26,212 bases of DNA from a bacterium (GTDB taxonomy: Bacteria > Babelota > Babeliae > Babelales > JAUWHS01), in assembly GCA_043818275.1 (NCBI GenBank), contig JBDRFY010000056.1:1-26212 (forward strand), in the 5' to 3' direction. A model generated the notes under the pieces. The model was given only the letters and a program-made list of their open reading frames with translations. It made no database searches and had not been told where the DNA came from. The stretch's first letter is position 1; every line of letters begins with the position of its first letter. The position numbers were made by a program, and so were the translations under genes. Shown piece by piece: positions 8,461 through 25,380 of this stretch.

Positions 8461-9465
8461 ATGGAAAATAACAAAAAGAATGTTTATTTCTTTGACCAGC
8501 GTGGAAAACTTGTTGAAGAAAAAATCGAATGGAAGTTATTTTTAAATTTTATTTATAAAAATAAAATAGGTCTTTTTTTTAGAAAAATTTTAAATAAATC
8601 GTTTGCAAGTAAAATTTTTGGTTTTTTTCAAAACAGATTTTTTAGTAAATACAGAATCAAGTCTTTTATAAAAAAATATAATATTGATGAATCTGAATTT
8701 GAAAAAAATATAAATGAAATTAAAAGTTTTAATGATTTCTTCACAAGAAAACTCAAACCAGGATCCCGGCAGATAGACAAAAATAATTTTTCTAGCGTGA
8801 TTTCACCAGCTGATAGTAAAATTTTCGTTATTCCCCAAATTTATTCGAATTTGAAATTTAATGTTAAAAACTGTCAGTTTGATCTGAAAAAATTTCTTGG
8901 TGATAAGAAATTGGCTCAAAACTATGAAAATGGGTCAATGTTAATTTTCAGACTTGCTCCGTATGATTATCATCGATATCATTTCCCCATTGATTGTTTT
9001 GTGGAAAAAGCAAAATTAATAAATGGTTTGTATGATTCGGTAAATCCATTGGTTTTTAGCGATGATGTTAAACCATTAACTGAAAATGAACGGAAACTTA
9101 TAATTTTAACCCCCCTTCGCCAAGGCTTCCCGCTTCGCCAAAGCTTCGCAGGACATGTCGGAGGGCAAGAAAGTGAAAAATTCGCTGACGTTTTAATGGT
9201 TGTTATTGGTGCAATGATGGTTGGAAAGATTAAATTGACATATAAACCTGATGAAAAATATAAAAAGGGTGATGAGTGTGGTTATTTTGAATTTGGCGCA
9301 TCTTCGATTGCATTATTATTTAAAAAAAATGAAATAAAAATAAACGATGTTTTTATAAAAAATTCCGCAAAAGGGTTTGAAACAGAAATTAAAATGGGGC
9401 AAGTTGTGGGCAGCTTTTTTGAAAATATAAAAAAAGTTAGAGATCCTGAATCAAGTTCAGGATGA
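8461..9465 (+). CDS. psd: Phosphatidylserine decarboxylase proenzyme, with a 20-aa repeat-derived insertion and a repeat-derived C-terminus
   Basis: SFNDFFTRKLK, SPAD, RLAPYDYHRYHFP, NER, GAMMVG and KGDECGYFEFGASS (cleavage-site region). Confidence 0.93.
   Translation: MENNKKNVYFFDQRGKLVEEKIEWKLFLNFIYKNKIGLFFRKILNKSFASKIFGFFQNRFFSKYRIKSFIKKYNIDESEFEKNINEIKSFNDFFTRKLKPGSRQIDKNNFSSVISPADSKIFVIPQIYSNLKFNVKNCQFDLKKFLGDKKLAQNYENGSMLIFRLAPYDYHRYHFPIDCFVEKAKLINGLYDSVNPLVFSDDVKPLTENERKLIILTPLRQGFPLRQSFAGHVGGQESEKFADVLMVVIGAMMVGKIKLTYKPDEKYKKGDECGYFEFGASSIALLFKKNEIKINDVFIKNSAKGFETEIKMGQVVGSFFENIKKVRDPESSSG
9110..9169 (+). repeat. Nested pair of 30-bp GC-rich palindromic elements inserted in frame in psd (inner copy 9128-9157)
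   Basis: 39/60 nt are G+C in an AT-rich gene. The rejoined outer unit CCCCCCTTCGCCAAGGCTTCGGAGGGCAAG and inner unit TCCCGCTTCGCCAAAGCTTCGCAGGACATG match at 24/30 positions. Encodes TPLRQGFPLRQSFAGHVGGQ. Confidence 0.85.
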
Positions 9466-9520
9466 CAAAATAGAGAATCTTAATTTTTCTTTGTTATCCT
9501 GAACTTGATTCAGGATCTCT
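9439..9520. repeat. Inverted doublet of a 31-bp TGTC-tagged REP-like palindrome (9439-9469 and 9490-9520, 20-nt spacer)
   Basis: AGAGATCCTGAATCAAGTTCAGGATGACAAA and its reverse complement with 1 mismatch. Each copy has an internal ATCCTGAA/TTCAGGAT stem. Confidence 0.9.
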
Positions 9521-9558
9521 GGTTTTAATAATTTTTCATATTAATTTAAAGGGTAGTT

Positions 9559-10206
9559 ATGGAAATTTATCCATCTTTAATTTCTTCAGATTTATTAAAT
9601 TTGCAAAAAACAATAAATATTCTGCAACCAGTTGTTGATGGTTTTCACATTGATGTTATGGATGATCATTTTGTTCCAAATCTAACCTGGGGTCCAGCGT
9701 TTGTTGATGCAATTGTTGGTGCAACTGAAAAACCATTACATGTACACATAATGGTTGATAACCCTACAATATGGACAAAAAGAATAAAATTATTACGAGA
9801 TCGTGACACTTTAATTTTTCATTATGAAGCAATTGATTGTAAAAAAATTCCAAAACTTATTGAAGAAATTAAAAATCAAAATGTAAATGTTGGTATTGCA
9901 ATAAATCCAAAAACTGATATTAATGTTGTTTTTGATTTTTTACCTGATTTAAATAATGTTTTAATTATGTCTGTTAATCCAGGTTTTTCAGGGCAACGAT
10001 TTATGCCGCAAGTTATGGATAAAATAACTCCGTTATTTGAATATAGAGAAAAAAATAATTTTAATTTTAAAATTAGTATGGATGGAGGAATTGGTCAGAG
10101 TAATATTAAAAATCTGGTTGATTTGGGCGTGGATCAGTTTGGAATTGCTTGCGCAATTTTTTCACAAAAAGATTGGATTGCAGCAGTTGAAAATTTGAAA
10201 GTTTAA
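9559..10206 (+). CDS. rpe: Ribulose-phosphate 3-epimerase
   Basis: PSLISSD, HIDVMDDHFVPNLTWG, HVHIMV, MSVNPGFSGQ and MDGG motifs. Confidence 0.95.
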   Translation: MEIYPSLISSDLLNLQKTINILQPVVDGFHIDVMDDHFVPNLTWGPAFVDAIVGATEKPLHVHIMVDNPTIWTKRIKLLRDRDTLIFHYEAIDCKKIPKLIEEIKNQNVNVGIAINPKTDINVVFDFLPDLNNVLIMSVNPGFSGQRFMPQVMDKITPLFEYREKNNFNFKISMDGGIGQSNIKNLVDLGVDQFGIACAIFSQKDWIAAVENLKV

Positions 10207-10208
10207 AA

Positions 10209-10514
10209 ATGAAATATTTGATTTTTAGTTTTTTAGTAATTTCTATATTTAGTATTTCTAATTTGCGCGCAAATAACATTCTAACTTTTCGTTTACATGA
10301 TTCTGAAGCCAAATTACCAGATGATGTTTGTTTTGTTCAGGAAAAAGATAATTGTATTGTTAAGTATGAATATAAAAAAATTAAAACTACTATTATTTCC
10401 AAAGAAGAAGTTGGGTTTATTAATTTTTTAGATGAAAAGATTAATAAATTTTTAGGATATATTTTGGGTATTAAAAAAGGTGAGTTTAATTTGGTTGATG
10501 GGGAATTTGATTAA
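10209..10514 (+). CDS. Small hypothetical exported protein (paralog A)
   Basis: Signal-peptide-like MKYLIFSFLVISIFSISNLRA. Gapless similarity to the next ORF. Confidence 0.7.
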   Translation: MKYLIFSFLVISIFSISNLRANNILTFRLHDSEAKLPDDVCFVQEKDNCIVKYEYKKIKTTIISKEEVGFINFLDEKINKFLGYILGIKKGEFNLVDGEFD

Positions 10515-10597
10515 AGGTGTGAAATAGTTAAGAGTTATTGTGTTGATTTTTTCACGAAGAGATTGTATGAAAAATGTTAAGGGATGGGGAGAGTTAG

Positions 10598-10855
10598 CTG
10601 AGGTATTTTTTGGGGGGTGTATTATTTTTTTTATTTTTTTATATTTCGAATTTAAATGCAAGAAAAAGAATAAATATTTATTGGGAAAATAATGATGCTG
10701 GTATTCCAGAAAATATTTGTATTATTAAAAAAGAAAAAGGTTTGATTTTTAAGTACATATATAAAAAAGAGGTCATGGCTAAAGTGCAATTATATGAGCA
10801 ATATTTAGAAAAATCAGATTTAAATATATATTTGAATTTGCCTTCAGATAAATAA
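10598..10855 (+). CDS. Small hypothetical exported protein (paralog B), probable CTG start
   Basis: ORF track starts at TTG 10610. In-frame CTG 10598 lies 6 nt after GGAG and aligns with the ATG of paralog A. Confidence 0.6.
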   Translation: MRYFLGGVLFFLFFYISNLNARKRINIYWENNDAGIPENICIIKKEKGLIFKYIYKKEVMAKVQLYEQYLEKSDLNIYLNLPSDK

Positions 10856-10918
10856 TTTTTATTTTAAAAAATAAATATGATTTAAACGGACAATGTTTAA
10901 AATATTGAAAGGTTTTTT

Positions 10919-12091
10919 GTGTCAGAAGGTGCTAGTGTTTCAAAATTAAGAGTAGGTGTTTTTTTTGGCGGAAAGGGAATAGAGAGAGAAGTTTCTTTTA
11001 ATTCTGGCAGAACGATTTGTGATCACATAAATGAATTTGAGTATGACACAGTTCCTATTTTTCAGCGATTTGATGGAGAGCTTTTTATTTTGCCATGGCA
11101 TTTTATGCACAGAGGTAAAATTTCTGATTTTATTAACAGGTTAGAAACAGAGGCAAAAAAAATATCCTGGGATGAGCTTAAAAATTTAATTGATTTTATG
11201 TACATTGCAACTCATGGAAGATTTGGTGAGGATGGGACAGTACAGGGATTTCTTGAAATTTTAGGAATTCCGTATCTTGGGGCAAAAGTTTTTGGCAGTT
11301 CTTTGGGGATGAATAAAATAATGCAGAAAACTTTTTTTCGGACCAATGGGATAGATGTGGCAAAAGATGTTTTTTTTTCCGCTTATGAAATTAAAAACTT
11401 ATCCAATGAAATAATTTTAAAAAAATTAAAAGAAAATAAAATAGATTTATCATGCGTTGTAAAACCAAATAATGAAGGTTCAAGTTTTGGTGTTGCGGTT
11501 GTTGAAAAAAAAGATGATTTATTAAATGCTATAAAAAAAACGTCAAAATGTGATAACCGATTTGAGCAGGATGTTATTGTTGAAGAAAAAATAGAAGGGA
11601 TGGAATTTGTTTGTGTTTGTTTGCAGAAAATAAATAAGAATGATAGCCCTACTTCGCATAAAGCTTCCGGTTTCGTACCGCAAAATAGCGGCACTTCGCC
11701 GGACGTGTCTTCGGGCATGTCTTCGACATGGTTTGCGTTGCCGATAACACAAGTTATTCCTGAAGATGGTTCAAAATTTTATGATTACGATCAAAAATAT
11801 ATGCCGGGTCGGGCATCAAAAATAACTCCTGCAAACTGTAGTGCGCAAGATCAGAAAAAAATTCAGGATGTTTGTATAAAAGCAACTGAAATTTTAGATT
11901 TTTCCACGATTTCACGTATTGATGGTTTTTTAACTAAAGATGGCAAAGTAGTATTGATTGATCCGAATGCTTTAACCGGAATGGCTCCAGCAACCTTTTT
12001 ATTTCATCAGGCTGCAGAAATTGGTATGAGTCATACTCAACTTATTAATTATTTAATTGAAGTTGAATTGCAAAATTACAAAAGAGGTTAA
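10919..12091 (+). CDS. ddl: D-alanine--D-alanine ligase family protein, copy 1, with a repeat-derived insertion of about 24-28 aa
   Basis: FGG..EREVS, HGRFGEDGTVQG, VKPNNEGSSFG, FYDYDQKY and RIDGF ATP-grasp motifs. Confidence 0.88.
   Translation: MSEGASVSKLRVGVFFGGKGIEREVSFNSGRTICDHINEFEYDTVPIFQRFDGELFILPWHFMHRGKISDFINRLETEAKKISWDELKNLIDFMYIATHGRFGEDGTVQGFLEILGIPYLGAKVFGSSLGMNKIMQKTFFRTNGIDVAKDVFFSAYEIKNLSNEIILKKLKENKIDLSCVVKPNNEGSSFGVAVVEKKDDLLNAIKKTSKCDNRFEQDVIVEEKIEGMEFVCVCLQKINKNDSPTSHKASGFVPQNSGTSPDVSSGMSSTWFALPITQVIPEDGSKFYDYDQKYMPGRASKITPANCSAQDQKKIQDVCIKATEILDFSTISRIDGFLTKDGKVVLIDPNALTGMAPATFLFHQAAEIGMSHTQLINYLIEVELQNYKRG
11647..11730 (+). repeat. Nested GC-rich palindromic elements in frame in ddl copy 1 (outer 11647-11719, inner 11666-11707, trailing CATGTC-TTC-GACATG hairpin 11716-11730)
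   Basis: The outer CCCTACTTCGCATAAAGCT^TCTTCGGGCATG is interrupted by the 42-nt TCCGG-TTTCG-hairpin-CTTCG-CCGGA-CGTG. No counterpart at the equivalent position of ddl copy 2. Confidence 0.85.
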
Positions 12092-12094
12092 AAA

Positions 12095-13225
12095 ATGAAT
12101 AAAAAAATTAAAGTCGCTGTTTTGTTGGGGGGAAATACAAATGAACGTGAAATTTCATTAGAATCAGGACGAAATATTTGTTACAAATTAAATACGGAAA
12201 AATATGAAGTGTTACCAATTTTTGTTGATGACAAAATGGAGCTTTATAGATTAGATCAAAAATTATTAGTTCAAAATTCAACGCGTGAAATTGAAAAAAA
12301 AGTAACAGAAGAAATAAAAGTTAATTGGTCCGGCTTATCTGAAATTTGTGATTTTGTTTTTATTGCACTTCATGGAGGATTTGGTGAAAATGGGGCGGTC
12401 CAGGGAACATTAGAAATGCTTGGCCTTCCTTATAATGGTTCTGGAGTGTTAACGAGTGCAATTTGTATGGACAAAGTAAAAACGACAGATTTTTTGAGGG
12501 CTCATGGTTTTGATGTTCCTAATTCTTTTTTGATTCAAAAAAATGTTTGGCAGGAACAAAAAGATGAAAAACAAAAAGAAGATTTTTTAAAAAAATTATT
12601 AAAAGATTTTGAATTTCCTGTAATTGTAAAACCGCATGATGATGGATGCAGTTTTGGGGTTGCAAAAATTGAAAATATTTTTGAAACAATAAAACAAATT
12701 GATAATTTTTTTGTTAACTACAAAAAGGATTCAGTTTTGATCGAAGAATTAATAAAAGGGATGGAACTTACTTGCGGTGTAATTGGAAATGATAAAGTAA
12801 TTGCGTTGCCTCCAAGCAAAGCCGTTGCAGCGCAAGGAATTTTATCAATCGAAGAAAAATTTCTACCAGGCGCGGGAGAAAATATTACTCCGGCCCCGTT
12901 GCCCGAAGAATCATTAAAATTTGTTCAAAAAACAATGCAAGATGTTTATTCAACTTTAAATTGCAAAGGTTACGCTCGCGTTGATTGTTTTTTTCAAAAT
13001 GCGCAAGAAAGTAAAACGAAAAAAGACAGAGTTGTAATTTTAGAAATTAACAGTCTTCCCGGCATGACTCCGGCAACATGTATTTTTCATCAAGCGGCGG
13101 AAATTGGAATAAGACCGATGGAATTTGTGGATAAAATTGTTGAACTTGGTTTTGAAAATCACAAACAAGTTAAAACGGATATTAAAAATAAAATTTATGA
13201 AAAAATAAAACAAACAAATGTTTAA
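12095..13225 (+). CDS. ddl: D-alanine--D-alanine ligase family protein, copy 2 (divergent specificity residues)
   Basis: LGG..EREIS, LHGGFGENGAVQG, VKPHDDGCSFG, ARVD and LEINSLPGMT motifs. Confidence 0.88.
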   Translation: MNKKIKVAVLLGGNTNEREISLESGRNICYKLNTEKYEVLPIFVDDKMELYRLDQKLLVQNSTREIEKKVTEEIKVNWSGLSEICDFVFIALHGGFGENGAVQGTLEMLGLPYNGSGVLTSAICMDKVKTTDFLRAHGFDVPNSFLIQKNVWQEQKDEKQKEDFLKKLLKDFEFPVIVKPHDDGCSFGVAKIENIFETIKQIDNFFVNYKKDSVLIEELIKGMELTCGVIGNDKVIALPPSKAVAAQGILSIEEKFLPGAGENITPAPLPEESLKFVQKTMQDVYSTLNCKGYARVDCFFQNAQESKTKKDRVVILEINSLPGMTPATCIFHQAAEIGIRPMEFVDKIVELGFENHKQVKTDIKNKIYEKIKQTNV

Positions 13226-14577
13226 TTTTGCGAAAAAAAAGAAGGACGTATATTTATTGCTTCAATATTAAATTGACCATTGTTGTCTGTTGTTAGTTTC
13301 ATAAATGTTGGGTAGTAAGTTATTGCATGGTTCTCACATTGAATTGTTGCTGAGATTAATGTAATTATTTTTTCGGTTAAGTTTGTTACTCCTGATGTGA
13401 AATCTGGGGTGAATTCTTCGTACAAAATTGATTTTTTTGGTAATTCATGTTGATGTCCACGAATAAATTTTAAAAAGTTATTTTCTAATTGATATTCTTT
13501 AAGGACTTCGTTTAAAAATAATTCATTGTATTTAATAAATGCTGGACCACGTACTGTATTATTTTGAACAATCGGATAGCTTTCATCTGTATACAAAATA
13601 TCTGCCCATAAAAAATTAATAAAAGGATTATTTAGTGTAAACTGATCAAAAAGAGGTTGTTCCAAAGTTTTTCCATAAATTTGTAGTATTTTTGGCGCAT
13701 CATCAAAATCAACTAATTCTAATGGATTAAATTGTAATTTGAAATTATTTAGTACCGCTAAAAAATTTTTAGGGTTATATCTAAATTCAAAGCCTGCATG
13801 GCTTAAATGAATAAATTTTTGTTTATCTGATGTAAGGTAAACTGCGGCTGGCATTAACGCATAAGATGTTTTTAATTGATTAACAAATTGAAGATTGAAT
13901 TTTTTAAATTTATTTGCTAGCTCTTTTAAAAAACCATAGTTTAAATTTATATTTATATCTTCATGATTGCCCCGAATTAAAACAACATTGTATGGATTAA
14001 TTATTTTTAAAAGCATAATGGTTGTTAAAGTTTCCAGACCCATTTCCCCTCGGTCTGTATAATCTCCTAGAAATATTAAATTGGCATTATGCAATTTTAA
14101 ATTTGTATCTAATACAGAAGTAGTTTTATCAATAAATAAATGTTTTTCTCTTTTAATTATATAATTTAATATTTCAAAGAGATCATTAAAATTTCCGTGT
14201 AGATCTCCAATTACATAAGTTTTTTCTAAGTTATTTGTGAATAATGCGCAAGTATGAAATGTTTTATCGATTTGTTTAATTGGTCGTGAAATTATTATCC
14301 CTTTTAAAGGGATAATAATTTCATTTGTTCTTTGTTTTATAGGCCAATATTTTTGTTTAGTGAAAATTTTTGAGCATGTAGTATTAAATTTAGTAATTAT
14401 TTCTATGAAAGTTTCTTCACGGATCTTTTTTTCGTTTAATTGATCACGCCACTCATAAAAATTTAAGTTTTTTAAATTTTCTATATCTATGTCGAAGGAA
14501 TTTAGTTTTGTTTGGTGGGACAACAAAATTAAAAAAAGAGATAAAAAAAGGATATTTAATTTTTTTGTTTTTTTCAT
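13222..14577 (-). CDS. PPP-family Ser/Thr phosphatase-like metallophosphoesterase with predicted signal peptide
   Basis: GDLHG, GDYTDRG, RGNHE, SHAG, LWAD and IRGHQ motifs. N-terminus MKKTKKLNILFLSLFLILL. Confidence 0.85.
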   Translation of the reverse strand: MKKTKKLNILFLSLFLILLSHQTKLNSFDIDIENLKNLNFYEWRDQLNEKKIREETFIEIITKFNTTCSKIFTKQKYWPIKQRTNEIIIPLKGIIISRPIKQIDKTFHTCALFTNNLEKTYVIGDLHGNFNDLFEILNYIIKREKHLFIDKTTSVLDTNLKLHNANLIFLGDYTDRGEMGLETLTTIMLLKIINPYNVVLIRGNHEDININLNYGFLKELANKFKKFNLQFVNQLKTSYALMPAAVYLTSDKQKFIHLSHAGFEFRYNPKNFLAVLNNFKLQFNPLELVDFDDAPKILQIYGKTLEQPLFDQFTLNNPFINFLWADILYTDESYPIVQNNTVRGPAFIKYNELFLNEVLKEYQLENNFLKFIRGHQHELPKKSILYEEFTPDFTSGVTNLTEKIITLISATIQCENHAITYYPTFMKLTTDNNGQFNIEAINIRPSFFSQN

Positions 14578-14672
14578 AATTAAAAAATTTTCTAGTTTAA
14601 AAAAGATTTTTTGTATAAAAACAACTGATCTTATTATAAAAACTATATTTTTATCGTCAAAAAGTTTCAGTC

Positions 14673-15281
14673 TTAAAGTTTACTTCCAGATAAAAAAGAC
14701 AATGCGGATCTTATTAATTTATCCAATGGGTAATTTTGATCAGAATATTTTTCTGTTAAATACATCATCGCTTTTGAAATTTCCGGTTTTGAATAATTTA
14801 ATGAGACTAAAACATCATTAATATTTTGCCAGTGTGTAAAATCTTGTTGTTGTTCACTTAGATTTATTTGACCGGAAGAAAGAAGTTTTGAAATTTTATG
14901 CTTTAATTGCACAATAATTTGTTCTGCTTTTTTTTCACCAATTCCGCTAATTGAGCTTAAAGCATCTTCATTCTGCGTTGTTATAACTTCTATAAATCTC
15001 CCCGGACTCATTTGCGATAAAATACTAAGCGCAATACTTGGACCAATTTTTGGGCAATCAATTATCATTAAGAATATTTGTCTTTCTGTTTCATCCTTAA
15101 AACCATAAAAACTTGGTCCTTTTTCCTGATTCCAGTGCATATACGTATATATTTTTTCTTCTTTGTCTTTTGAAAAATTTTTTGTATTTGGAACATGTAA
15201 CTGAAAACCCATTCCATTTGTAACGATAGTTAAATTTTTTTCACCGATATTTTCAATTTTGCCTATTAAATAATTAATCAT
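14673..15281 (-). CDS. ruvA: Holliday junction branch migration protein RuvA
   Basis: MINYLIG, YGF...ER, HhH motifs (KIGPSIA, GIGEKKAEQI) and C-terminal LVSLNY. ruvB/ruvC are not adjacent. Confidence 0.93.
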   Translation of the reverse strand: MINYLIGKIENIGEKNLTIVTNGMGFQLHVPNTKNFSKDKEEKIYTYMHWNQEKGPSFYGFKDETERQIFLMIIDCPKIGPSIALSILSQMSPGRFIEVITTQNEDALSSISGIGEKKAEQIIVQLKHKISKLLSSGQINLSEQQQDFTHWQNINDVLVSLNYSKPEISKAMMYLTEKYSDQNYPLDKLIRSALSFLSGSKL

Positions 15282-15469
15282 TTTTTTCTCCTTTTTATTA
15301 TGGCTATTTGAATTAAAATGGTCTAATGTGTCAGTTTTTTGAAGCTTTTGTGTTTTTAATTAATTAATTTATATTTACAGCTATATTTTAATTAGTTTTT
15401 TATGGTTGTTCCATTAATTAATAATAATTGAACTAATGATAATAGTTTTGGGGTTGGGGTTTTATAATT

Positions 15470-16135
15470 ATGAAATTCTTTAATTACATCTTAATTTTAG
15501 TTTTATCATTTTTATGTTTAAAAAATTCTTTTTCTGGTGTTATTGAAAATCAAACTTCAACAGCGAATTTTTCTATAGCCGCGCCTTGGTCAAAATCATC
15601 AGATTATACCTCATATCATGAATCGGGACATTTTTTATTTGCCTCCTTATTGAATAACAAGAGAATTGAAAGTGAAATAGTCGAAGAATTTTCTTTTTTT
15701 GTATTTTCAGATTTTACAGGTTCTACAAGCACCTATTTTCCAAATGATTTTTCAATAACTTTGGAACAAGAATTGGACCGAATTTGTTTTTATTTAGCCG
15801 GGGGTATCGCAACAGAAATTATTTACGGATCTAAAAATGGTGTTTCTGATGATGAGGCGCAAGTTGAAAAACATATTAAAAATTTGCTTGAGAAATATAA
15901 GAACGATTCCGTTCCTTTAAATAAAATTAAAGATTATTTTGGTTTATCCATTTTTACAAAAGAAGATTTTAATTTTAAGTGTTTAAAAGGTGAGTGTTAT
16001 AAAAAAACCGAAAAAATTATTTCTGAAAATATAGAATTATTGAAACTTATCGCAAATAAATTAGAAGACAAAAGGAAATTGGATTATGAAGAGATGGAAA
16101 AATTGATTTGTGATTTTGAAAGTATTGAGATTTAA
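15470..16135 (+). CDS. Exported stand-alone peptidase M41 (FtsH protease domain)-like protein, paralog 1
   Basis: Signal peptide, YHESGH (HEXXH), LAGGIATEIIYG and GVSDD. No AAA+ domain. Confidence 0.7.
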   Translation: MKFFNYILILVLSFLCLKNSFSGVIENQTSTANFSIAAPWSKSSDYTSYHESGHFLFASLLNNKRIESEIVEEFSFFVFSDFTGSTSTYFPNDFSITLEQELDRICFYLAGGIATEIIYGSKNGVSDDEAQVEKHIKNLLEKYKNDSVPLNKIKDYFGLSIFTKEDFNFKCLKGECYKKTEKIISENIELLKLIANKLEDKRKLDYEEMEKLICDFESIEI

Positions 16136-16161
16136 ATATTTAGTATTAAATGGGGGTTGAC

Positions 16162-16914
16162 ATGTTCAAACTTAAAAATAAATTTTTAATAATTATATCT
16201 TTTTTAATATTCTCTAATGTTTTTTCGCTTAGTGTTTTACAACGTTTAACTAATACTTTTCAGGGACCGGCTTTATATATTGTGCAAAATCAAAAAGAGG
16301 TGAAAAAAGGTATTAAGGAACCTTTTTATTGGATTACAACCAATTCTAGCGATAGTTTGGATTCGGCTGTTTGTCATGAAGTTTCTCATACTCTGGTTGG
16401 ATATAAATTGGGATTTAGAATAACAAACGCTTCTGTCTACAAAGACTCTCTTCTTCGCTACGCTTACGTTGGTAAAACCGAATTTGAATTAGGTGGCGAA
16501 GAATTTAAAAATAAAACAGAAATTGATCAGGACGTTTTAAATCAATTAAGCGATGAAGTTTTAAAAAATTTGATTTGTATGGCTTTAGCTGGTGGCTTAG
16601 GAACAGAAATTATTTATGGTCAGGATTATGGTATGTCAGGTGATGATGGAGTGATAGATATCATTGGAGCAGAATTAATTAAAAGAGAAAATAATTCATT
16701 ATTGGATAAAGTTTTATTAGCCACTAAAGATTTATCATTTATTTCCAAGAATGATTTTAAAGCTAAAGTAAAAGAGATTAAAAAAGAATGTTACGAAAAA
16801 ACAAAGACTTTACTTATTGAAAATAGAGATACCCTTGAGAAATTAAGCAAACGATTAAAAAATAGTTCGGATAAAATTTTGAATGAAGATCAGATTAAAG
16901 AAATAATTGGATAA
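16162..16914 (+). CDS. Exported stand-alone peptidase M41-like protein, paralog 2
   Basis: Signal peptide, CHEVSH, LAGGLGTEIIYG, GMSGD and ECYEKTKTLLIEN (ECYKKTEKIISEN in paralog 1). ATG 16162 follows GGGGG. Confidence 0.7.
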   Translation: MFKLKNKFLIIISFLIFSNVFSLSVLQRLTNTFQGPALYIVQNQKEVKKGIKEPFYWITTNSSDSLDSAVCHEVSHTLVGYKLGFRITNASVYKDSLLRYAYVGKTEFELGGEEFKNKTEIDQDVLNQLSDEVLKNLICMALAGGLGTEIIYGQDYGMSGDDGVIDIIGAELIKRENNSLLDKVLLATKDLSFISKNDFKAKVKEIKKECYEKTKTLLIENRDTLEKLSKRLKNSSDKILNEDQIKEIIG

Positions 16915-16952: not shown

Positions 16953-17565
16953 AAACTGTGAAGTTTCTTTTTTGATTAGGATTGTTTTTATCTACAAGCT
17001 TTAAATTTAATTGATATAAATCAACATTTTTATTAACAAACATTAACTTATTAATTTTACTCTTTGATTTTATTTTTATTTCTTCATGTGGATAAATAGC
17101 CTTTAAATCAAAATCATGGTTTAAATCTTTGTTATAGTCTTTTGATTTTATTCCATCAACCGCGGCTCCAATAAAAAGCGGCCAGAAAAATAATCCGCCA
17201 GCGCACCAGGCCGCGACTCTTAAAGAAGTATTGCGATGGAGGTTTTTAGCTACTTGGCTAGGTTCTTCTATTTGTATGTTCATATCATCTGAATAAATAG
17301 AATAATTTTGATCAGTTTTATTTTTAATACTTAAAAGAATAGGTTTATAACCTTTTTGTGATAATTTTTGACTGGCACTTTTGCCAAAAATTTCTCTTGA
17401 TTCTTTTTCGTTTAGAATTTTTTTATGAACCGTTATGCCTTCTATATTTTGCTTTTGCCCATTAATTTTTGGCAAAGGTTTTGAATGGTATTTTGCGCAA
17501 CTAGCCAATAAAACAAGCAATAAAACGGGCAATATTCTTTTTGATATTTGTTTCCTAATTTTCAT
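16951..17565 (-). CDS. Hypothetical lipoprotein
   Basis: MKIRKQISKRILPVLLLVLLASC lipobox (LASC) and an internal hydrophobic Gly/Ala-rich segment. ATG 17565 follows a G-rich RBS. Confidence 0.7.
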   Translation of the reverse strand: MKIRKQISKRILPVLLLVLLASCAKYHSKPLPKINGQKQNIEGITVHKKILNEKESREIFGKSASQKLSQKGYKPILLSIKNKTDQNYSIYSDDMNIQIEEPSQVAKNLHRNTSLRVAAWCAGGLFFWPLFIGAAVDGIKSKDYNKDLNHDFDLKAIYPHEEIKIKSKSKINKLMFVNKNVDLYQLNLKLVDKNNPNQKRNFTV

Positions 17566-17891
17566 GAAAATTCCCCCCAAAAAAAGCTTTTAGAATTAGA
17601 TGTTAAAAAACTTATTTCAACTATAAAATAAATCTACAAAAAGAATTTTTATTTGTAAAAAGCCTTTTGATTAGAGATCGAATAAAATTTCATCTGTTAA
17701 ATCATTTGAATTAACTAATTTAAGTGAAAATATGCCAAAATATCCTTTTTTTAGGTGTAAAAATAAGTTTAATTAAATTTTTCTTAGGGGGAATTATTAT
17801 TTTTTGCATTAGATTTATCGTTTGTGTTTTGAAATTTTGTTTCACTTTGAAATTATAATTTTTACTTTTATCCTTTATTTTTACAGGGTTA

Positions 17892-18491
17892 TCACTTTTT
17901 ATATTTATTCATATAGTTTATTATTTTCTTTTTTGCCCCTATTTCGGGATATCCCCAAGGGAAATAAAAGTATCTCCATTTTTTGTTTGGTGAAAATTTA
18001 GAATCTAGAAAATATTTAATTTTTTCTGGAAAATTTTTAGGTTTTGTTTTTAGTATTTCATTAATGTGCGGTGTATACTGTTTTATTCTTAAACTTGGGG
18101 TTCCACCAAGTCTAAATCTAAAAATAATTTTATTTATTTTGTTCCATGGAATAAATGTGCTTTTTTTTAATCCAATATTGCAAACCAAAGCCCCTTCAAT
18201 TGCGTTGTAGATGTACATTCCTTCAGGGGTTAATTTTATAAGGGGGATATATTTTTTACCCTTGAAAGGATAATTTTTGTAGTTCATATACAAAGATATA
18301 ATTTCCACACATATAAAAATAACATACATAAGAAAAAGAACTGTAAGAATTGGTATAGAAAATTCAAATAAAAATATAGGTACTATTACAAATAAAATTA
18401 TTCCTATGATAATAACGAATAGAAAGTCAAAAAAATATGTTTTATTTGAGTATATTTTCATTGAATGTATTATTTCTTCTTCTTCTCTCAT
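17892..18491 (-). CDS. Hypothetical membrane protein (two N-terminal TM helices)
   Basis: 199-aa ORF immediately downstream of gatB with two hydrophobic segments. No family recognised. Confidence 0.6.
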   Translation of the reverse strand: MREEEEIIHSMKIYSNKTYFFDFLFVIIIGIILFVIVPIFLFEFSIPILTVLFLMYVIFICVEIISLYMNYKNYPFKGKKYIPLIKLTPEGMYIYNAIEGALVCNIGLKKSTFIPWNKINKIIFRFRLGGTPSLRIKQYTPHINEILKTKPKNFPEKIKYFLDSKFSPNKKWRYFYFPWGYPEIGAKKKIINYMNKYKK

Positions 18492-18519
18492 TACGTTATC
18501 CTTTTTTTTATCTAGAAAT

Positions 18520-19962
18520 TTATTTCAGATGTTTTTCGTATAATTTTTGAATAATAACAGGATTTCCTTTGCCCTTTGTTTCTTTCATTGCAAGACCGAC
18601 AAAAAATTTAATTAATCTATCGTTTCCTGAGAGATATTTTGCTTTTTGGTCAGGGTTGTCATTGATAATTTTAAGAACAATTTTTTCCAATTCTTTTTCA
18701 TCGCTAACTTGTTCCAAGCCTTTTTCTTTAATTATCTCAATAGGTGATTTTCCTGTTTTTGCCATTGTTTCGAAAACTTCTTGTGCAATTTTTGTATTAA
18801 TAGAACCATTATCAATTTCCTGAATTAATTGAGCAAAATTTTGTGGCGTGATTTTAGCTTCTTCAAGTGTAATCTTTTGTGCCTTTAAATAGCCAAGAAC
18901 ATCTCTTAAAAGCCAATTACAAATTTGTTTTGGTAAATTTATAATTTTTACTGTTTGCTCAAAAAAAACGGCAAGTTTTACATCTTCAGACATAATTGAT
19001 GCTTCATCATATGATAAAGAATAATTTTTTTGAAAGCGGTTAATTTTTTCATGTGGAAGTTCCGGAATTTGTTTTTTTATTTCATTTATCCATTTTTGAT
19101 CAACATCAATTACTGGCATATCTGGATCGGTAAAATATCGATAATCTTGCGCTTCTTCTTTTGAACGCATAAAAACGGTTTTGTGTTCTTTTGTGTCCCA
19201 GGTTCTTGTTTCCTGTTTTATTTTTTCATTGTTTTGTAGTTTTTTAATTTGGCGTTCAATTTCGTATTCAATAGCATGAGCAACAAATTTAAATGAATTA
19301 ACATTTTTAATTTCAACTTTTGTTCCCAGTTTTGTTTCATTTTTTTTTCGGACTGAAACATTTACATCTGCGCGAAAAGAACCCTCATCCATATTTGCAT
19401 CACTTATATCCAGATATCTTAAGATAGAGTGCAAACGAATTAAGTATTTTCTTGCTTCATCTGCTGAGTTCATGTCAGGTTTACTGACAATTTCGAGTAA
19501 TGGTGTACCACTTCTGTTTAAATCAATTAAACTTTTATTGTTTTTTCCATGAATCATTTTTCCAGCATCTTCTTCCATGTGAATTCGTTCCAGATGTATT
19601 TTTTTTGTTTTATTATCATCAATTTCTATTGGAATAAAACCATCACGACAAATTGGATTTTCTCCTTGTGTAATCTGATAATTTTTAGGTGTGTCCGGAT
19701 AAATATAATGTTTTCTTGCAAAATCTGATTCGGGTTGAATTTTACAATTTGTCGCAAGGCCTAACATGATTGCAAAATCCACAACTTTTTTATTTAAAAC
19801 TGGAAGTGTTCCTGGGTGTCCCGCGCATATAACGCAAATATTTGTATTTGGTTTGTCTCCAAATTTATTTGAACAAGAACAATAAATTTTTGATTTTGTT
19901 TTTAATTGTGTGTGAACTTCTATTCCAATAACCGCTTTGTAATCAGGAAATTTTTCTAACAT
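18520..19962 (-). CDS. gatB: Asp-tRNA(Asn)/Glu-tRNA(Gln) amidotransferase subunit B
   Basis: IGIEVHTQL, PGTLPVLN, RKHYIYPDTPKNYQITQ, HMEEDAGK, NRSGTPLLEIV, EIKNVNS and DYRYF motifs. Confidence 0.97.
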   Translation of the reverse strand: MLEKFPDYKAVIGIEVHTQLKTKSKIYCSCSNKFGDKPNTNICVICAGHPGTLPVLNKKVVDFAIMLGLATNCKIQPESDFARKHYIYPDTPKNYQITQGENPICRDGFIPIEIDDNKTKKIHLERIHMEEDAGKMIHGKNNKSLIDLNRSGTPLLEIVSKPDMNSADEARKYLIRLHSILRYLDISDANMDEGSFRADVNVSVRKKNETKLGTKVEIKNVNSFKFVAHAIEYEIERQIKKLQNNEKIKQETRTWDTKEHKTVFMRSKEEAQDYRYFTDPDMPVIDVDQKWINEIKKQIPELPHEKINRFQKNYSLSYDEASIMSEDVKLAVFFEQTVKIINLPKQICNWLLRDVLGYLKAQKITLEEAKITPQNFAQLIQEIDNGSINTKIAQEVFETMAKTGKSPIEIIKEKGLEQVSDEKELEKIVLKIINDNPDQKAKYLSGNDRLIKFFVGLAMKETKGKGNPVIIQKLYEKHLK

Positions 19963-19982
19963 TTAAAATTCTTTCATAATAT

Positions 19983-20040
19983 AGATCCTGAAACTTCTCG
20001 ACAATCCCGCTATTTGCGGGACGAAGTTCAGGATGACAAA
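19983..20040. repeat. TGTC-tagged REP-like palindrome with a GC-rich hairpin module inserted in its loop
   Basis: AGATCCTGAA...TTCAGGATGACAAA arms are identical to the 9439 copy. The loop is replaced by ACTTCTCGACAA-TCCCGC-TATTT-GCGGGA-CGAAG. Confidence 0.85.
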
Positions 20041-20067
20041 TAGGTTTAAATTTTTTTATGGTTGTAA

Positions 20068-21582
20068 TTATTCAACATAAATTTTTGATTGTTTATCAGT
20101 CAGTGATGCATCACTTTCTAAAATAATTTTTGCGTTTAATTCTTTTTCTAATTCTAAAATTGATGTGTATTCATTATGAATTAAATAATTAAATATTTTT
20201 GGTGATATTGCCAGGTCTATGGTTCCCTTGTAATTATTTCTGAGGCAATCTTCTTTAAAGTCTTTTAATATTTCATATGTGTTGGTTGTATCTGATTTTA
20301 CAAAACCATAGGAATGACAATTTGGGCAAACTGTTGTTAGTTGCTGAATAAGCGTTTTTCCGGATCTTTTTCTTGTCATTTGAACAAGACCAAATTCAGA
20401 AATTTTTAAAATAACTGATTGATATTTATCTCTTTCTTTGAGCATTTTTTCTAAATGTCTGGATAATTTTTGTTTATTTGTGTGGCTTGCCATATCAATA
20501 AAATCTATAACAATTAATCCACCAATATTTCTTAATCTTAATTGTCTTACTATTTCTTCAGCTGCTTCCAGATTTGTTTGTAAAATTGTTTCTTCCATTG
20601 AACCCTGACCTGTAAATTTACCGGTGTTTACGTCAATTACGGTCATTGCTTCTGTTGTTTCAATAATCAAAGAACCGCCAGATCTTAATGGAACTTTTTT
20701 TTCTAACGTTGCTTCAATTTGTTCATCAATTTTATATTTATCAAAAAGAGAAGGGAAATTGTCATGATATTTAATTTTTGAGATAAGTTCAGGGGTATAA
20801 TATTTTACAAATCTTATTATTGCTGCCTGATCTTGTTTATTATCTGTTATTACTTCAGTAATATCTTCATCCAAATGTTCTCTGATAACCCGAATTGTTA
20901 CAGGTAAATCTTCGTAAATTTTCTCGCCAATTTGTGCTTTTTTATATTTTTTTAAAATGGCTTTCCATGTAGATATTAAAAAGCCGAGATCTTTTTTTAT
21001 GTCTTTTGCACTTCTGCCTTCAGCAGTAGTTCTAATTATAGCACCCATATGAATTGGTAAATTTGTTGTTAAAATTTCTTTTAAACGCGTTCTTTCTTCC
21101 CGGTCTTCAATTTTTTTTGAAACACCAATTTGTGGAATATTTGGCATTAAAACTACAAATTTTCCTGGTAACGTAAAACAGGTTGTCAGCTTGGCTCCTT
21201 TTTCATAAACTGGTTCTTTTAAAACCTGAATAAGAATACTTTCACCTTCTCTTACTATTTTTTCTATTGAGATTGCTTTTTTTAATTTTTTATCAATTGC
21301 TTCCTGTTCTTTTGTTTCATCTATTTGTAGTGATTCGGCTGTTTTTTCAATAGCTAATGCCCGATCAATTTCTGTTATATGCAAGAAACCTGATTTGGTT
21401 TGTCCGATGTCAACAAAAGCGGTTTGAATACCTGGAAGAACTTTAGAAACTTTTCCCTTAAAAAAAGAACGTTCAAGTTCTTCTTTTAAATTGGATTCGA
21501 AATAAATATCTCGTAATTTATCATTTTGTAATATAGCAACCCTTGTTTGCCAGGGTTCTTTGTTTATTAAAATTTTTTTCAA
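20068..21582 (-). CDS. rng: Rne/Rng family ribonuclease (RNase G-sized)
   Basis: VLPGIQTAFVDIG, S1 domain, IIRT, VIDVNTG, RQLRLRNIGGLIVIDFIDM and CPNC. The likely start is TTG 21582 after GGGGA (ORF track opens at 21639). Confidence 0.92.
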   Translation of the reverse strand: MKKILINKEPWQTRVAILQNDKLRDIYFESNLKEELERSFFKGKVSKVLPGIQTAFVDIGQTKSGFLHITEIDRALAIEKTAESLQIDETKEQEAIDKKLKKAISIEKIVREGESILIQVLKEPVYEKGAKLTTCFTLPGKFVVLMPNIPQIGVSKKIEDREERTRLKEILTTNLPIHMGAIIRTTAEGRSAKDIKKDLGFLISTWKAILKKYKKAQIGEKIYEDLPVTIRVIREHLDEDITEVITDNKQDQAAIIRFVKYYTPELISKIKYHDNFPSLFDKYKIDEQIEATLEKKVPLRSGGSLIIETTEAMTVIDVNTGKFTGQGSMEETILQTNLEAAEEIVRQLRLRNIGGLIVIDFIDMASHTNKQKLSRHLEKMLKERDKYQSVILKISEFGLVQMTRKRSGKTLIQQLTTVCPNCHSYGFVKSDTTNTYEILKDFKEDCLRNNYKGTIDLAISPKIFNYLIHNEYTSILELEKELNAKIILESDASLTDKQSKIYVE

Positions 21583-21771
21583 TTTTGTCCCCACTAAAAA
21601 CTTTTTAAATTTTTCCTTTTTCCTTGTACTTATAGTCAAGATTATGAAATAAAGTTTATTATAAACAAATTTAATCAGAATTAGTAGGAAATTACCAAGA
21701 TTTGTGATAATATATTACCGTGTTCGTTAAAAAAATGTACTTTTTTGTGGATGATTTTTGGGAGTATTAAC

Positions 21772-22518
21772 ATGAAGTTTCGAAGTTTTTCTTTAAAGTC
21801 TTTTCTTCCTGTATTAATTTTATTTGCTCTTTTGTTCGTAGGTTGTGGTAAGAAAAAAGAAGATTCTTCACCAAAATTAGAAAAGGGCAAAAAAATTGCA
21901 CAAATTGAGAATACAGAGTTGATGGCAGAAAGCGGAATTCCTCTTTATGACGAAGAAATAGAAGATTTTGATGATTCGATTTCCGATTTTGCTGTTGTTG
22001 AGAATGATGATTACTCAAATTTTGAAGATTTAAAACAGGAAGATTCATTTAAAATTGCTGATTTAAGCCAGGATGATATTTTTATTAAAGATGAAATGGA
22101 TGATGTTGATTGGGAAGATGAGGAGTTACTTGCTCTTGAAGAAGAAACTGAAATTATTGATGACTATAAATTTAAAAATGTTCAGTTTGCGTTAAATAAA
22201 TATGGAGTCAGAACAGATCAGAAAAATATCCTTGATGAAAATTTAAGGTTGGCAAAGCGTGCCTCAGAAGAAGGTAAAAATTTAACAATTATTGGTCATG
22301 CTTGTCAGCTTGGAGATGCGGCATATAATATGCCTTTATCAGAAAATAGAGCAAAAGCTATTAAAAATCTTTTTGTGAAAAATGGTATATCCCATGATAA
22401 GATAAAAGTTATAGGAATGGGTCAGGAAAGACCGCTTGTTTGGAGTAATGAAACAGAAAAAGAAAAATTAATTGATGATTTGGCTCCAAACAGACGTGTT
22501 GAAATTTTAATAAATTAA
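21772..22518 (+). CDS. OmpA-family (Pal-like) peptidoglycan-binding lipoprotein with a long acidic linker
   Basis: Lipobox FVGC and C-terminal OmpA motifs (GHAC..G...YNMPLSENRA, GMGQERP, NRRVEI). ATG 21772 follows GGGAG. Confidence 0.85.
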   Translation: MKFRSFSLKSFLPVLILFALLFVGCGKKKEDSSPKLEKGKKIAQIENTELMAESGIPLYDEEIEDFDDSISDFAVVENDDYSNFEDLKQEDSFKIADLSQDDIFIKDEMDDVDWEDEELLALEEETEIIDDYKFKNVQFALNKYGVRTDQKNILDENLRLAKRASEEGKNLTIIGHACQLGDAAYNMPLSENRAKAIKNLFVKNGISHDKIKVIGMGQERPLVWSNETEKEKLIDDLAPNRRVEILIN

Positions 22519-22541
22519 GAAATATTTTGTAAATAAAATTT

Positions 22542-22567
22542 AAGGCTCTCGAAAGAGAGCCTTTTTT
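22542..22567 (+). terminator. Intrinsic terminator between convergent genes
   Basis: AAGGCTCTC-GAAA-GAGAGCCTT stem followed by a T-run. Confidence 0.8.
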
Positions 22568-22982
22568 AAATAAGCTTCGTTTTTATTTGATCAACTATTT
22601 TTTTCATGAGCAGGTAGTGTTTTTCGATTCTATTATTTAGTTCTTCTGCAAATTCTTCATGATATGTGTGAGAAGACAAATTGCGATCATCAACTATATT
22701 TAATAATTGTTTTGCCTCTTCTTCATTAACCAGACCAGCCTTAAAACAATAACGAAAAGTTGGTTTTGGACCAGGTTCAAGATCAACACCATAAATTTTT
22801 TTGAAATAAAGTCTTAAAAATTTCCATAGCGTATCTACGCAAAATTCAAAACTTTGTATTTTAGAGTTTCTTAAATGCTCTAAGTATTCCTTTTCTTGTA
22901 ATGTTTCAAAATCATTTATTGCTTTTTTCAAAAAGGTTAGTGTTTTTTCAGCTGTATTGAAGCGTTCTTTTATTTTTTCCAT
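22566..22982 (-). CDS. HEPN toxin (HI0074-family nucleotidyltransferase substrate-binding protein)
   Basis: IQSFEFC..LWK, DDRNLSSHTY (R-X4-H-X-Y). Overlaps the upstream MNT gene. Confidence 0.88.
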   Translation of the reverse strand: MEKIKERFNTAEKTLTFLKKAINDFETLQEKEYLEHLRNSKIQSFEFCVDTLWKFLRLYFKKIYGVDLEPGPKPTFRYCFKAGLVNEEEAKQLLNIVDDRNLSSHTYHEEFAEELNNRIEKHYLLMKKIVDQIKTKLI

Positions 22983-23260
22983 ATAATTCTTTCCTTTAAT
23001 ATTCGGGATTTCATTGTTGGTGAAATTGAATTAAAATCAATTATATCGATGTCCAGTGGAATATTAAGATCATCAATTGATAAGCGAATTGAGGCTATTT
23101 TCTCTTTTTCTATTTTTTCCCCTGCATCCAAAGCTATATCTATATCCGAATATTGACTATATTCTCCTGTTGCGCGAGACCCAAATAAATAAATTTTTGC
23201 TTCAGGTAAATATTTATTTATAAGTTTTATTAATTTTTCTTTATATTCTTTTTTTACCAT
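22970..23260 (-). CDS. Minimal nucleotidyltransferase (MNT) antitoxin
   Basis: YLFGSRATGEYSQYSDID matches G-S-X10-D-X-D. 96 aa. Confidence 0.9.
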   Translation of the reverse strand: MVKKEYKEKLIKLINKYLPEAKIYLFGSRATGEYSQYSDIDIALDAGEKIEKEKIASIRLSIDDLNIPLDIDIIDFNSISPTMKSRILKERIIWKK

Positions 23261-23361
23261 TTTTTAAGCTTGCCCGTTTTAAAGATCAAAAAATTCAATG
23301 ATAATGTACATTTTAGCTTCCAATGATTGATAAAACAAGTATTTTACTCTTAAGATTTTTT

Positions 23362-25380
23362 TTATTGAGTTGGTACGATAAAAATACTGCTTTTGAATTT
23401 TTGAAGGTTAATATTTTTTAATATTTCGTGAACAGATTTAAAATCTTTTGCTTTTATAAAAATTTGTCTGCATTCGGTTTTTTGAATTTTGTAAATTATT
23501 GGTTTTGATGGACCTAGTATTTTCAAATTTAAATTTTGATTTTTATTTTTTAGGATATTTGTAAGTTGATTTGAATCCGCTTCCAATTGTTCAATGTTAT
23601 CATTTTTCAATTCTATCTGAACAAGCCGGCCAAAGGGTGGATAATTTATTATTTTTCTATTTTCCTTTTCATATTGGCAAAATTCAAGATATTTTGTTTC
23701 ATCTAAAAAATTAAAGATTTCATGTTTCTGCATTGCCTGAACAATAACGTTTCCGGTTTTTTCGCCTCTTCCAGTTCTTCCTGCTACCTGAATTAATTTT
23801 TGCAGACATGTTTCAGTTGCGTTAAAAACAGGAAAATGCAGATTTAGATCAGCCCATAAAATTCCAACCAACGTTACATTTGGAAAGTGATAACCTTTTG
23901 TAATAACTTGTGTGCCGACTAAAATATCAATTTCTCCATCATTAAATTTTTGTACGGTTTCGTTCCATTTTCTTTTTTTTGTTGTTGTGTCCATATCTGC
24001 GCGTTCAATTATGGCAGTTGGAAACATTTCTTGTAATATTTTAACCGTTTGTTGTGTTCCGATTCCTTTTTTTAAAAAATTTTTTTCAGATGTTTTACAC
24101 TCTGGGCAGGCTGCAGGTAAGTTTTTTTTGTGATCACAATAATGACAACACAGTTTTTTTTGTTCCTCGTTATTATGCAGCGTTAGGCTGACAGAACAGT
24201 TAGGGCATTCAAAAATGAAACCACAGTTTTTACATTGAACAAAAAAGCTAAATCCACGACGGTTTATGTAAATTATGGTTTGTTCTTTTTTTTCCAGTTT
24301 TTCTTTTATTTGTTGTTCAAGTTCTGTTGTTATCCAAAAATTTTTGCGACGTTTTGTGGACCCCGGCGTAGCTTTATGCGTAGACGGGTTTTCATTGAAA
24401 TAAACAAATTTTATTTCTGGAAAATTTCCACCAAATCTTTTTTTTAGCTGAAAAAATTTCCAGTTATTTTTTTCAATATTGTATAAAGAATTTAAAGAGG
24501 GGGTTGCAGATCCTAAAAGTATTGGAATTTTATAAAAATTTGCGCGCCAAATTGCAAGTTCTTTACTGTTAAGTTTAGGATGTTTTTTTTCCTGAAATCC
24601 TGTTTCGTGTTCTTCGTCAACTATTATTAATCCCAGATTTGAAATTGGGAGTAGTATTGGTAAATGCACCCCAATTATTAAAATTGGTTTGCCTAAAATA
24701 AGTGAGTTCCACAATTCTTTTTTTTCTTTTTCCTTGCTCGCAGAATGAAATCCAAAGATTTCAATGCCTGAAGGAAGTTGTTTTTTTAATAAGTTTTGAA
24801 ATTGCAGACTTAATGTTACTTCTGGCAACAACAAAATAGTTGTTTTTTGTTCGTTAAAATTTTGCAAGATTAAATTTTTATAAATTTCTGTTTTTCCTGA
24901 ACCTGTAACTCCATGAAGTAAAGTTGGCGAATAATCTGAATTTCGAATAAACCCTTCAAGGTAATTAATTACTGTTTGTTGTTCTTTTGTCAGGTTTATT
25001 TCAATACTTTTTGTTTTTTCAAATTCATTTTTCCATGGAATTTGTTCACGGTCTTCTTCTTTATTATTTTTGAGCAAAAAATTTCTTATCCGTTGATGGA
25101 AATGAATTGGTTTTACGAAGTAAAATTCAGAAATTTTTTTAATGAAATCATAATAAAATGGATCCATTGGCATTTTTTCAAGATCAATTGCCTCTCTAAT
25201 TTCAAAATCTATGTTTTGAGGCTTTATTTTATGCTGATAAATAACAAGAGCCGGTAAAAGTTTGTTTTTTAATGGAACCTTAACTACTTTTCCAACTAAA
25301 AACTGATTTTTAAGCTTTGGTGGAATTTTGTAGGTCAGCTCTCTTGAAAATCCTTTAAGTAGTCTGACTAATATGTACAT
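23362..25380 (-). CDS. priA: Primosomal protein N' (replication restart helicase), with a short repeat-derived insertion
   Basis: GVTGSGKT, DEEH, GSATP, NRRG, four CxxC pairs, GTQ and QVAGRTGR. The likely start is ATG 25380 (ORF track 25413). Confidence 0.95.
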   Translation of the reverse strand: MYILVRLLKGFSRELTYKIPPKLKNQFLVGKVVKVPLKNKLLPALVIYQHKIKPQNIDFEIREAIDLEKMPMDPFYYDFIKKISEFYFVKPIHFHQRIRNFLLKNNKEEDREQIPWKNEFEKTKSIEINLTKEQQTVINYLEGFIRNSDYSPTLLHGVTGSGKTEIYKNLILQNFNEQKTTILLLPEVTLSLQFQNLLKKQLPSGIEIFGFHSASKEKEKKELWNSLILGKPILIIGVHLPILLPISNLGLIIVDEEHETGFQEKKHPKLNSKELAIWRANFYKIPILLGSATPSLNSLYNIEKNNWKFFQLKKRFGGNFPEIKFVYFNENPSTHKATPGSTKRRKNFWITTELEQQIKEKLEKKEQTIIYINRRGFSFFVQCKNCGFIFECPNCSVSLTLHNNEEQKKLCCHYCDHKKNLPAACPECKTSEKNFLKKGIGTQQTVKILQEMFPTAIIERADMDTTTKKRKWNETVQKFNDGEIDILVGTQVITKGYHFPNVTLVGILWADLNLHFPVFNATETCLQKLIQVAGRTGRGEKTGNVIVQAMQKHEIFNFLDETKYLEFCQYEKENRKIINYPPFGRLVQIELKNDNIEQLEADSNQLTNILKNKNQNLNLKILGPSKPIIYKIQKTECRQIFIKAKDFKSVHEILKNINLQKFKSSIFIVPTQ
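24356..24388 (-). repeat. Single GC-rich palindromic element in frame in priA
   Basis: Minus strand CCC-GT-CTACG-CATAAAG-CTACG-CC-GGG-GTCCAC, encoding (N)PSTHKATPGST. Same core as the ddl outer element (PTSHKAS). The distal boundary is approximate. Confidence 0.75.

Follow-up and report, generated by a model that had tools for sequence, protein, structure and literature searches.

In a 26,212-nt stretch of a Dependentiae genome (hereafter the window, contig C56 of host genome G000), the genes for phosphatidylserine decarboxylase (psd), D-Ala-D-Ala ligase (ddl) and the primosomal helicase PriA (priA) each carry a short GC-rich insert that leaves the reading frame open. These inserts are in-frame copies of a dispersed, GC-rich hairpin of about 30 nt that resembles repetitive extragenic palindromic (REP) elements. 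It is likely a selfish element, and its solo copies would owe their spread to a small GIY-YIG nuclease whose genes lie downstream of tRNA genes. The host genome comprises 1,325,288 bases in 92 contigs with a GC content of 30.8%, and it was compared with 121 genomes from the same order, including one same-genus relative (G001) whose proteins are only ~70–75% identical to those of the host. An original prediction, made from the letters of the window alone, had placed GC-rich islands in the three genes and divided them into five units. The islands were found at these places and the division into five units holds; the island coordinates given for psd and ddl were right, and the start given for priA (24356) took in six flanking bases, the unit itself spanning 24362–24388.

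The psd open reading frame (ORF; 8461..9465, + strand, 334 aa; Pfam PS_Dcarbxylase, E=1.4e-48) contains a 60-nt insert at 9110..9169 on the + strand, which consists of two nested 30-nt units and encodes TPLRQGFPLRQSFAGHVGGQ. The GC content of 9110–9169 is 0.65, compared with 0.27–0.37 in the adjoining sequence. The outer unit, CCCCC-CTTCG-CCAAGG-CT / TCG-GAGGG-CAAG, occupies 9110–9127 and 9158–9169 (+), and the inner unit, TCCCG-CTTCG-CCAAAG-CTTCG-CAGGA-CATG (9128..9157, +), sits in the 3′ pentamer of the outer one (CT^TCG), so that its excision in silico gives back a complete outer unit. The inner spacer is the rare form CCAAAG, where the commonest form, CTAAAG, would create an in-frame TAA. 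DNA alignment with the G001 ortholog showed that exactly these 60 nt are missing there, and the 20 inserted residues are missing in 15/15 orthologs of the order; the empty site that had been predicted for psd, LIILKSEKF, fits the sequence ..IIMLKSDIF.. of the same-genus ortholog. In an AlphaFold model of Psd (mean predicted local distance difference test score (pLDDT) 85.7; predicted template modelling score 0.86), the insert forms a coil between the strands 211–218 and 244–249, with pLDDT below 50 at residues 226–239.

The first of two tandem D-Ala-D-Ala ligase genes (10919..12091, + strand, 390 aa; Pfam Dala_Dala_lig_N/C) carries a composite insert of 84 nt at 11647..11730 (+), and the Pfam match to the C-terminal domain of its product is split into two stretches. 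The unit parse and ortholog comparison resolved this insert into four pieces, all on the + strand: the 5′ part of an outer unit, CCCTA-CTTCG-CATAAAG-CT (11647–11665), an inner unit of 42 nt whose hairpin spacer measures 18 nt (11666–11707), a degenerate 3′ part of the outer unit, TCT-TCGGG-CATG, whose second pentamer is CTTCT (11708–11719), and an 11-nt remnant (11720–11730). The insert is missing in 9/11 orthologs, and genome G024 has a longer, unrelated loop at this place. In the G001 ortholog this outer unit also stands at the same position, and the inner unit nested in it measures 30 nt and has the spacer CCAAGG; the ddl insertion is therefore older than the divergence of the two species, after which the inner loop changed. 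The two ddl genes of the window are separate ORFs (10919–12091 and 12095–13225), and the corresponding open frame in most relatives of the order is 740–800 aa long, i.e. a fused double Ddl.

The priA ORF (23362..25413, − strand, 683 aa; six PriA/helicase Pfam domains) contains a single, tailless 27-nt unit, CCCGT-CTACG-CATAAAG-CTACG-CCGGG, at 24362..24388 on the − strand, which encodes most of the peptide PSTHKATPG. It falls between the DEAD domain (144–309) and the Zn ribbon (403–430), corresponds to a 27-nt gap in G001, and the segment is missing in 11/11 orthologs. Empty sites in orthologs, as they had been expected for all three genes, were thus found for psd and priA, while the ddl insert is shared with G001. 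The ORF listing of the window confirmed that the psd, ddl and priA frames are all open despite the inserts, which lengthen the proteins by 9 to 28 residues. The added peptides and the use of two reading frames had been reported correctly, and the identities of Psd, Ddl and PriA were borne out by Pfam. Further GC-rich islands of the window (2473–2505, 6493–6522, 12803–12898 and 17188–17226) resemble ordinary coding sequence and contain no units.

An origin of the islands as chimeras of the assembly, or as ordinary lineage-specific expansions of loops with no relation to a repeat family, is extremely improbable. The assembly is of a fragmented, metagenome type with 92 contigs, and the ddl loop is variable at the insert position in G024, but this explanation is already contradicted by the independent genome G001, in whose ddl the insert occupies the same site, and by the recurrence of a strict 16-nt core of the unit 36 times in the host genome. 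A public contig also spans 9065–9239 without difference, although it may stem from the source sample.

Beside the psd insert, an inverted repeat of ~95 nt (9437–9531) runs across the psd stop codon and contains the final psd codons (..RDPESSSG*). Each of its arms is a hairpin, GATCCTGAAnCAAGTTCAGGATGACAA, similar in appearance to a CGTC/TGTC-tagged REP; the motif of the arm has 22 copies in the genome, some with a nested 30-nt unit. Public-contig depth is very high at 9437–9531, as expected of a widespread repeat, and an Rfam search with 9428–9535 returned only sub-threshold matches to generic hairpins.

As seen in the islands of psd, ddl and priA, the unit is laid out as a 5-nt stem, CTWCG, a spacer, a second CTWCG, the complementary 5-nt stem and a tail of CAGG, CAAG or CATG. 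A 6-nt spacer gives a unit of exactly 30 nt, and the units of the window span 27–42 nt. The spacer is itself a mini-hairpin (C-TAAA-G, C-CAAG-G, C-ATAAA-G, T-TAAA-A, T-GTAAA-A, or the longer TACCGC-AAATA-GCGGTA), and the whole forms a hairpin with a covarying outer stem of 5–6 bp, a conserved TWC/TWC mismatch bubble, an inner stem of 2 bp, a YAAR-type loop and the unpaired tail CAGG. The conserved unpaired end reads ..GGR-CAGG, the tail being CAGG in 19/80 and CAAG in 17/80 units. Each of the five flanking positions is paired in 63–90 of the 117 core matches in the host genome, compared with 14–22 at positions 6–8 and 8–56 when the partner is slid, and the 28 perfect stems comprise 12 distinct 5-mers. 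Predicted single-stranded DNA folding energies of the units were not better than those of shuffles (z −1.4 to +0.8), owing to the energy cost that the model assigns to the conserved TWC/TWC bubble. The hairpin is backed by covariation rather than by folding energy, which is no evidence either way; the word ‘palindromic’ in the original prediction was loose. An origin of the stems by copying from the target (inverted target duplication) was ruled out, given the GC-rich stems in the AT-rich psd target and the different stems of units within one host repeat.

Copies of the unit are dispersed through the host genome. The stem-flanked pattern CTWCG..CTWCG occurs 107 times, compared with 4–33 times for five scrambled pentamers; stricter filters leave 80 units (18 genic and 62 intergenic), and the core without the stem filter gives the 117 matches mentioned above. 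The copy number in the host genome is thus about 80–117, mostly intergenic. Against the 36 host copies of the strict 16-nt core, a reversed control gave 1 match in all 121 genomes. That further copies would be found both genome-wide and in relatives proved correct, with 107 in the genome and the core in 83/121 genomes of the order. By placement, the 107 units divide into 71 intergenic ones, 31 within ORFs and 5 that run across an ORF end, in a genome of which 87% is covered by ORFs (a coding fraction of 0.87 computed from ORFs of at least 100 aa). Besides psd, ddl and priA, at least 13 recognisable genes hold such a unit in frame. In-frame copies were found in ORFs with Pfam domains of MnmE, asparagine synthase, heparinase II/III-like proteins, UvrC (two copies), class-I tRNA synthetase, PP-loop ATPase (TilS-like), GlmS (SIS plus GATase), MnmA, MurB and Fic, and three further hosts matched no Pfam family. 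A larger composite repeat of several units (..GAATTCTTCTGCATCCTTCGCATAAAGCTTCGGAGCACCCTGCGAAG..) stands at many contig ends (C12, C41, C72, C74, C86, C90 and others) and probably breaks the assembly.

Genic units use all three frames, and the 18 of the strict set lie 11 in sense and 7 in antisense orientation. Units free of stop codons in all six frames make up 8/18 of the genic and 4/62 of the intergenic copies (Fisher p=4e-4). This enrichment of stop-free variants suggests that the genic copies are translated, and the open frames together with the avoidance of stops make it probable that the inserts in general are. Spacer lengths, for which multiples of three had been expected inside genes, gave a divided result: 13/18 genic and 32/62 intergenic spacers are multiples of three overall, which is not significant (p=0.18), whereas hairpin spacers measure 18 nt in 3/3 genic and 2/13 intergenic cases (p=0.018). 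These observations would fit a process in which units insert anywhere and insertions that break the frame or bring a stop are purged, with the 30-nt length favouring survival inside ORFs and the surviving inserts being translated as tolerated surface loops. The proposal of a dispersed, non-coding mini-element family that adds peptide segments to conserved proteins is supported. In three empty/filled pairs of other repeats within the genome the size difference is 30, 30 and 31 nt, in every case one unit, and such fixed-size differences mark the unit as a discrete insertion module. A miniature inverted-repeat transposable element derived from an insertion sequence (IS) does not fit, as no target-site duplication of at least 3 nt borders the inserts of psd and priA or the units in the three other repeats, and the whole unit is a single hairpin.

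A candidate for the mobilising enzyme came from the neighbourhood of the units. Besides UvrC, the host genome encodes six small GIY-YIG ORFs (Pfam GIY-YIG, above the cut-off) with units in their flanks. Two of them are flanked by a longer palindrome, CCGCTCG..TCCTTCGACTACGCT..AGGACGAGCGG, often with a nested unit; the other four (class 2, ~80 aa) are found 100–400 nt downstream of tRNA genes whose CCA end carries a unit, and a reverse unit often stands 23–42 nt before the class-2 start codon. Class-2 homologs occur in 75/121 genomes of the order, usually in multiple copies, some of which contain stops. At 30 class-2 loci, a tRNA or tmRNA gene lies just upstream in 22, a unit lies within 500 nt upstream in 19, and the unit begins on the tRNA 3′ end in 7. 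The strict core was detected in 67/75 genomes with a class-2 nuclease and in 16/46 without it (Fisher p=5e-10, in a comparison where relatives are not independent). The nearest solved structures to the class-2 nuclease by sequence are SLX1 and UPF0213 proteins, and an NCBIfam search with the small GIY-YIG proteins gave nothing above the cut-offs. From these associations we infer that the class-2 nuclease may mobilise the units: the ~80-aa protein would recognise the hairpin, probably in single-stranded form, and nicks made by it would prompt the copying of the unit to new sites, frequently inside or next to other hairpins. At one class-2 locus (L061, contig C6 of G112), identical 26-nt units in the same orientation stand on both sides of the gene, a layout that resembles NTS-ssnA-NTS. 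A different conserved trailer, CCA-tcctacgccttcactttcgaagtttagcaaaag.., follows tRNA-Ile, Leu, Tyr and Phe genes of the host genome (contigs C5, C13, C62 and C69) and may be another element family targeting tRNA ends.

The position on tRNA ends raises another explanation, namely that the unit is primarily a functional RNA (or DNA) structure under selection, such as a tRNA 3′-trailer, terminator or processing signal, whose genic copies are accidental by-products. The stems do covary across phyla, in many tRNA and tmRNA genes a unit pairs with the CCA end and is itself followed by another small hairpin and a run of T, and Di Nocera, De Gregorio and Rocco (2013; PMC3733652) argue that many REPs act as RNA elements. 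However, the core is missing from 38/121 genomes of the order, and a strict unit is found on the 3′ end of only 8/46 tRNA/tmRNA genes of the host, although degenerate ones were seen by eye on many more. Genic copies also occur in both orientations, units lie inside three other kinds of repeat, their presence tracks a multi-copy, partly decayed nuclease gene, and an Rfam search found no family matching them. On this balance we regard a primarily functional structure as unlikely.

REPIN/RAYT systems pair short hairpin repeats with the single-copy domesticated nuclease or transposase that disperses them. The unit shares with REP and REPIN elements the form of an imperfect palindrome of 20–40 bp in many dispersed copies, as seen in the 107 structured units with covarying stems, and the original prediction had named a REP-associated tyrosine transposase (RAYT)/IS200-like HUH nuclease as a possible partner. 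The genome has five intact Y1_Tnp genes (~150 aa) and one fragment; every intact gene stands alone and is flanked by palindromes, and units lie near one of them (contig C59). Nevertheless, the flanking palindrome, GGGTTATAGTTAATAGCC..GGGTTTTAACCCGTGG, belongs to a different family, in which units appear only as nested insertions of 30–31 nt, so that the unit is not the repeat flanking the RAYT genes of this genome. The units also lack the conserved unpaired GTAG end, with no GTAG head among those listed. Movement of the units in trans by these RAYT-type (IS200-like, Y1) transposases is hence quite improbable, and the small GIY-YIG nuclease is the better supported partner. Y1 genes of ~150 aa at C36:2823, C59:425, C60:13535 and C76:3903, flanked by GGGTTATAGTTAATAGCC..GGGTTTTAACCCGTGG, form a second, separate REP system.

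Several observations weigh against spread of solo copies by the small GIY-YIG nuclease. Units are present in 16/46 genomes without a detected class-2 nuclease and there are none in 8/75 genomes with it. Insertion sites shared no single target motif, and target-site duplications of at least 3 nt were not found at those in psd, in priA and in the three filled repeats. Nesting of unit in unit as a general rule was rejected, as a strict excision test identified it in 1/80 units compared with 0–7 in displaced controls. Clearly recent, identical solo copies were not seen and many different stems are present, so that the sequences lend no support to current mobility. The psd and priA inserts are undatable, G001 being only ~70–75% identical in protein, and public contigs, with patchy cover, contained no empty-site allele and no joint skipping an insert. 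Among the public runs containing the sequence, no RNA data set was listed.

In contigs of one genome per species, a 27-nt pattern of the unit had at least 119 exact matches, compared with about 1 expected by chance according to our own estimate. The matches listed include Patescibacteria, Alphaproteobacteria (Bradyrhizobium, Mesorhizobium and Caulobacter), Verrucomicrobiota, Kiritimatiellia, Acidobacteriota, Omnitrophota, Bacteroidota, Planctomycetota, Elusimicrobia, Dependentiae and others. Among the 120 matches listed, the two free stem positions pair in 97–99 and the sixth pair (T-A or C-G) is formed in 110, compared with 8–13 when the partner is slid. Their reverse strand reads YYTG(T/C)CC, and the corresponding base is A (69 of the 120) or G (51), giving TGTC or TGCC. 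The pattern excludes the tRNA-end form by design, and its count of 0/121 at tRNA ends is therefore uninformative on the tRNA association. A bolder reading, which we put forward tentatively as a possibility, is that this hairpin, found across more than 10 phyla, is the recognition site and end-piece of a minimal homing cassette, in which a GIY-YIG gene of ~80 residues targets tRNA CCA ends and spreads gene-less copies in trans, the 30-nt copies surviving in essential genes as a source of new loops.

Among known repeats, RPE-1, a Rickettsia palindromic element (RPE), has a length of about 100–150 bp, several times that of the unit, and resides in Rickettsia. The unit shares with RPEs, as described in PMC3733652, the character of a selfish palindromic repeat of a host-dependent, AT-rich bacterium that lies in frame in conserved genes, leaves them open and adds extra loops. 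It differs in host phylum and sequence, as well as in its length of 27–42 nt, its nesting and its occurrence in many phyla; RPE sequences were compared by description only.

The same article describes REPs of which some lie wholly inside ORFs of known proteins, where they add 10–30 residues; the hosts are often replication or repair genes, a bias to which priA and uvrC correspond here. As a kind, in-frame intragenic small palindromic repeats are thus already reported there. The GTAG and CGTC REPs, as they are presented there, are likewise palindromes of 20–40 bp that are mostly intergenic, partly intragenic, and form dimers or grouped units, and the CGTC-tagged ones have no known transposase. 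In the same description, the stem of CGTC families has 8–9 uninterrupted bp starting with two A-T pairs, whereas the unit has 5–6 GC-rich bp, the 3×3 TWC/TWC bubble and 2 bp, so that a loop of 4–5 nt is the sole stem-loop feature of CGTC families that fits it; the unpaired end of the unit reads TG(T/C)CC where these families have CGTC, with TGTC or CCTC also allowed. A search of four supplement files of PMC3733652 for six sequence or peptide strings of the unit gave no match, in a comparison made without its consensus figures, and the searchable literature gave none either. A literature search on Dependentiae with the terms palindromic, repeat and insertion listed no account of such repeats in the phylum.

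The work of Chenal et al. (2025; PMC11893778) ties one such REP family, dRS3/NTS, to Ssn GIY-YIG single-strand nucleases, which are assigned to the cd10448 clade, and several features of this SRM/NTS and Ssn system, as given there, recur with the unit: hundreds of hairpin repeats of ~30 nt, an oriented non-palindromic flank, enrichment in symbionts, and a small single-domain GIY-YIG gene that is flanked by the repeat and associated with it both spatially and phyletically. In contrast, the published SRM search motif matched 0/80 units and had 0 matches in the whole genome, the class-2 nuclease appears by sequence to be closest to SLX1 and UPF0213 among solved structures, and neither ‘tRNA’ nor intragenic copies are mentioned in the text of that article. 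Lacking the stem features of the CGTC families, the SRM motif and a GTAG tag, the unit is best filed as a new family within an already known kind, in-frame intragenic REP and RPE elements being in print.

The inserts indicate that a reduced, host-dependent bacterium tolerates a 30-nt hairpin in the genes of essential enzymes (Psd, Ddl, PriA, UvrC, GlmS, MnmE, MnmA and MurB), which may thereby gain surface loops. The unit explains one frequent origin of the odd, GC-rich ‘hypothetical’ peptides seen in AT-rich genomes; annotators are warned that such GC-rich islands are inserts rather than errors. Tracking a nuclease and spread across phyla, the unit is a concrete, testable candidate for how REP-type repeats without a transposase may spread, and the homing cassette, if real, would supply the missing mobilising enzyme for this class of REPs.

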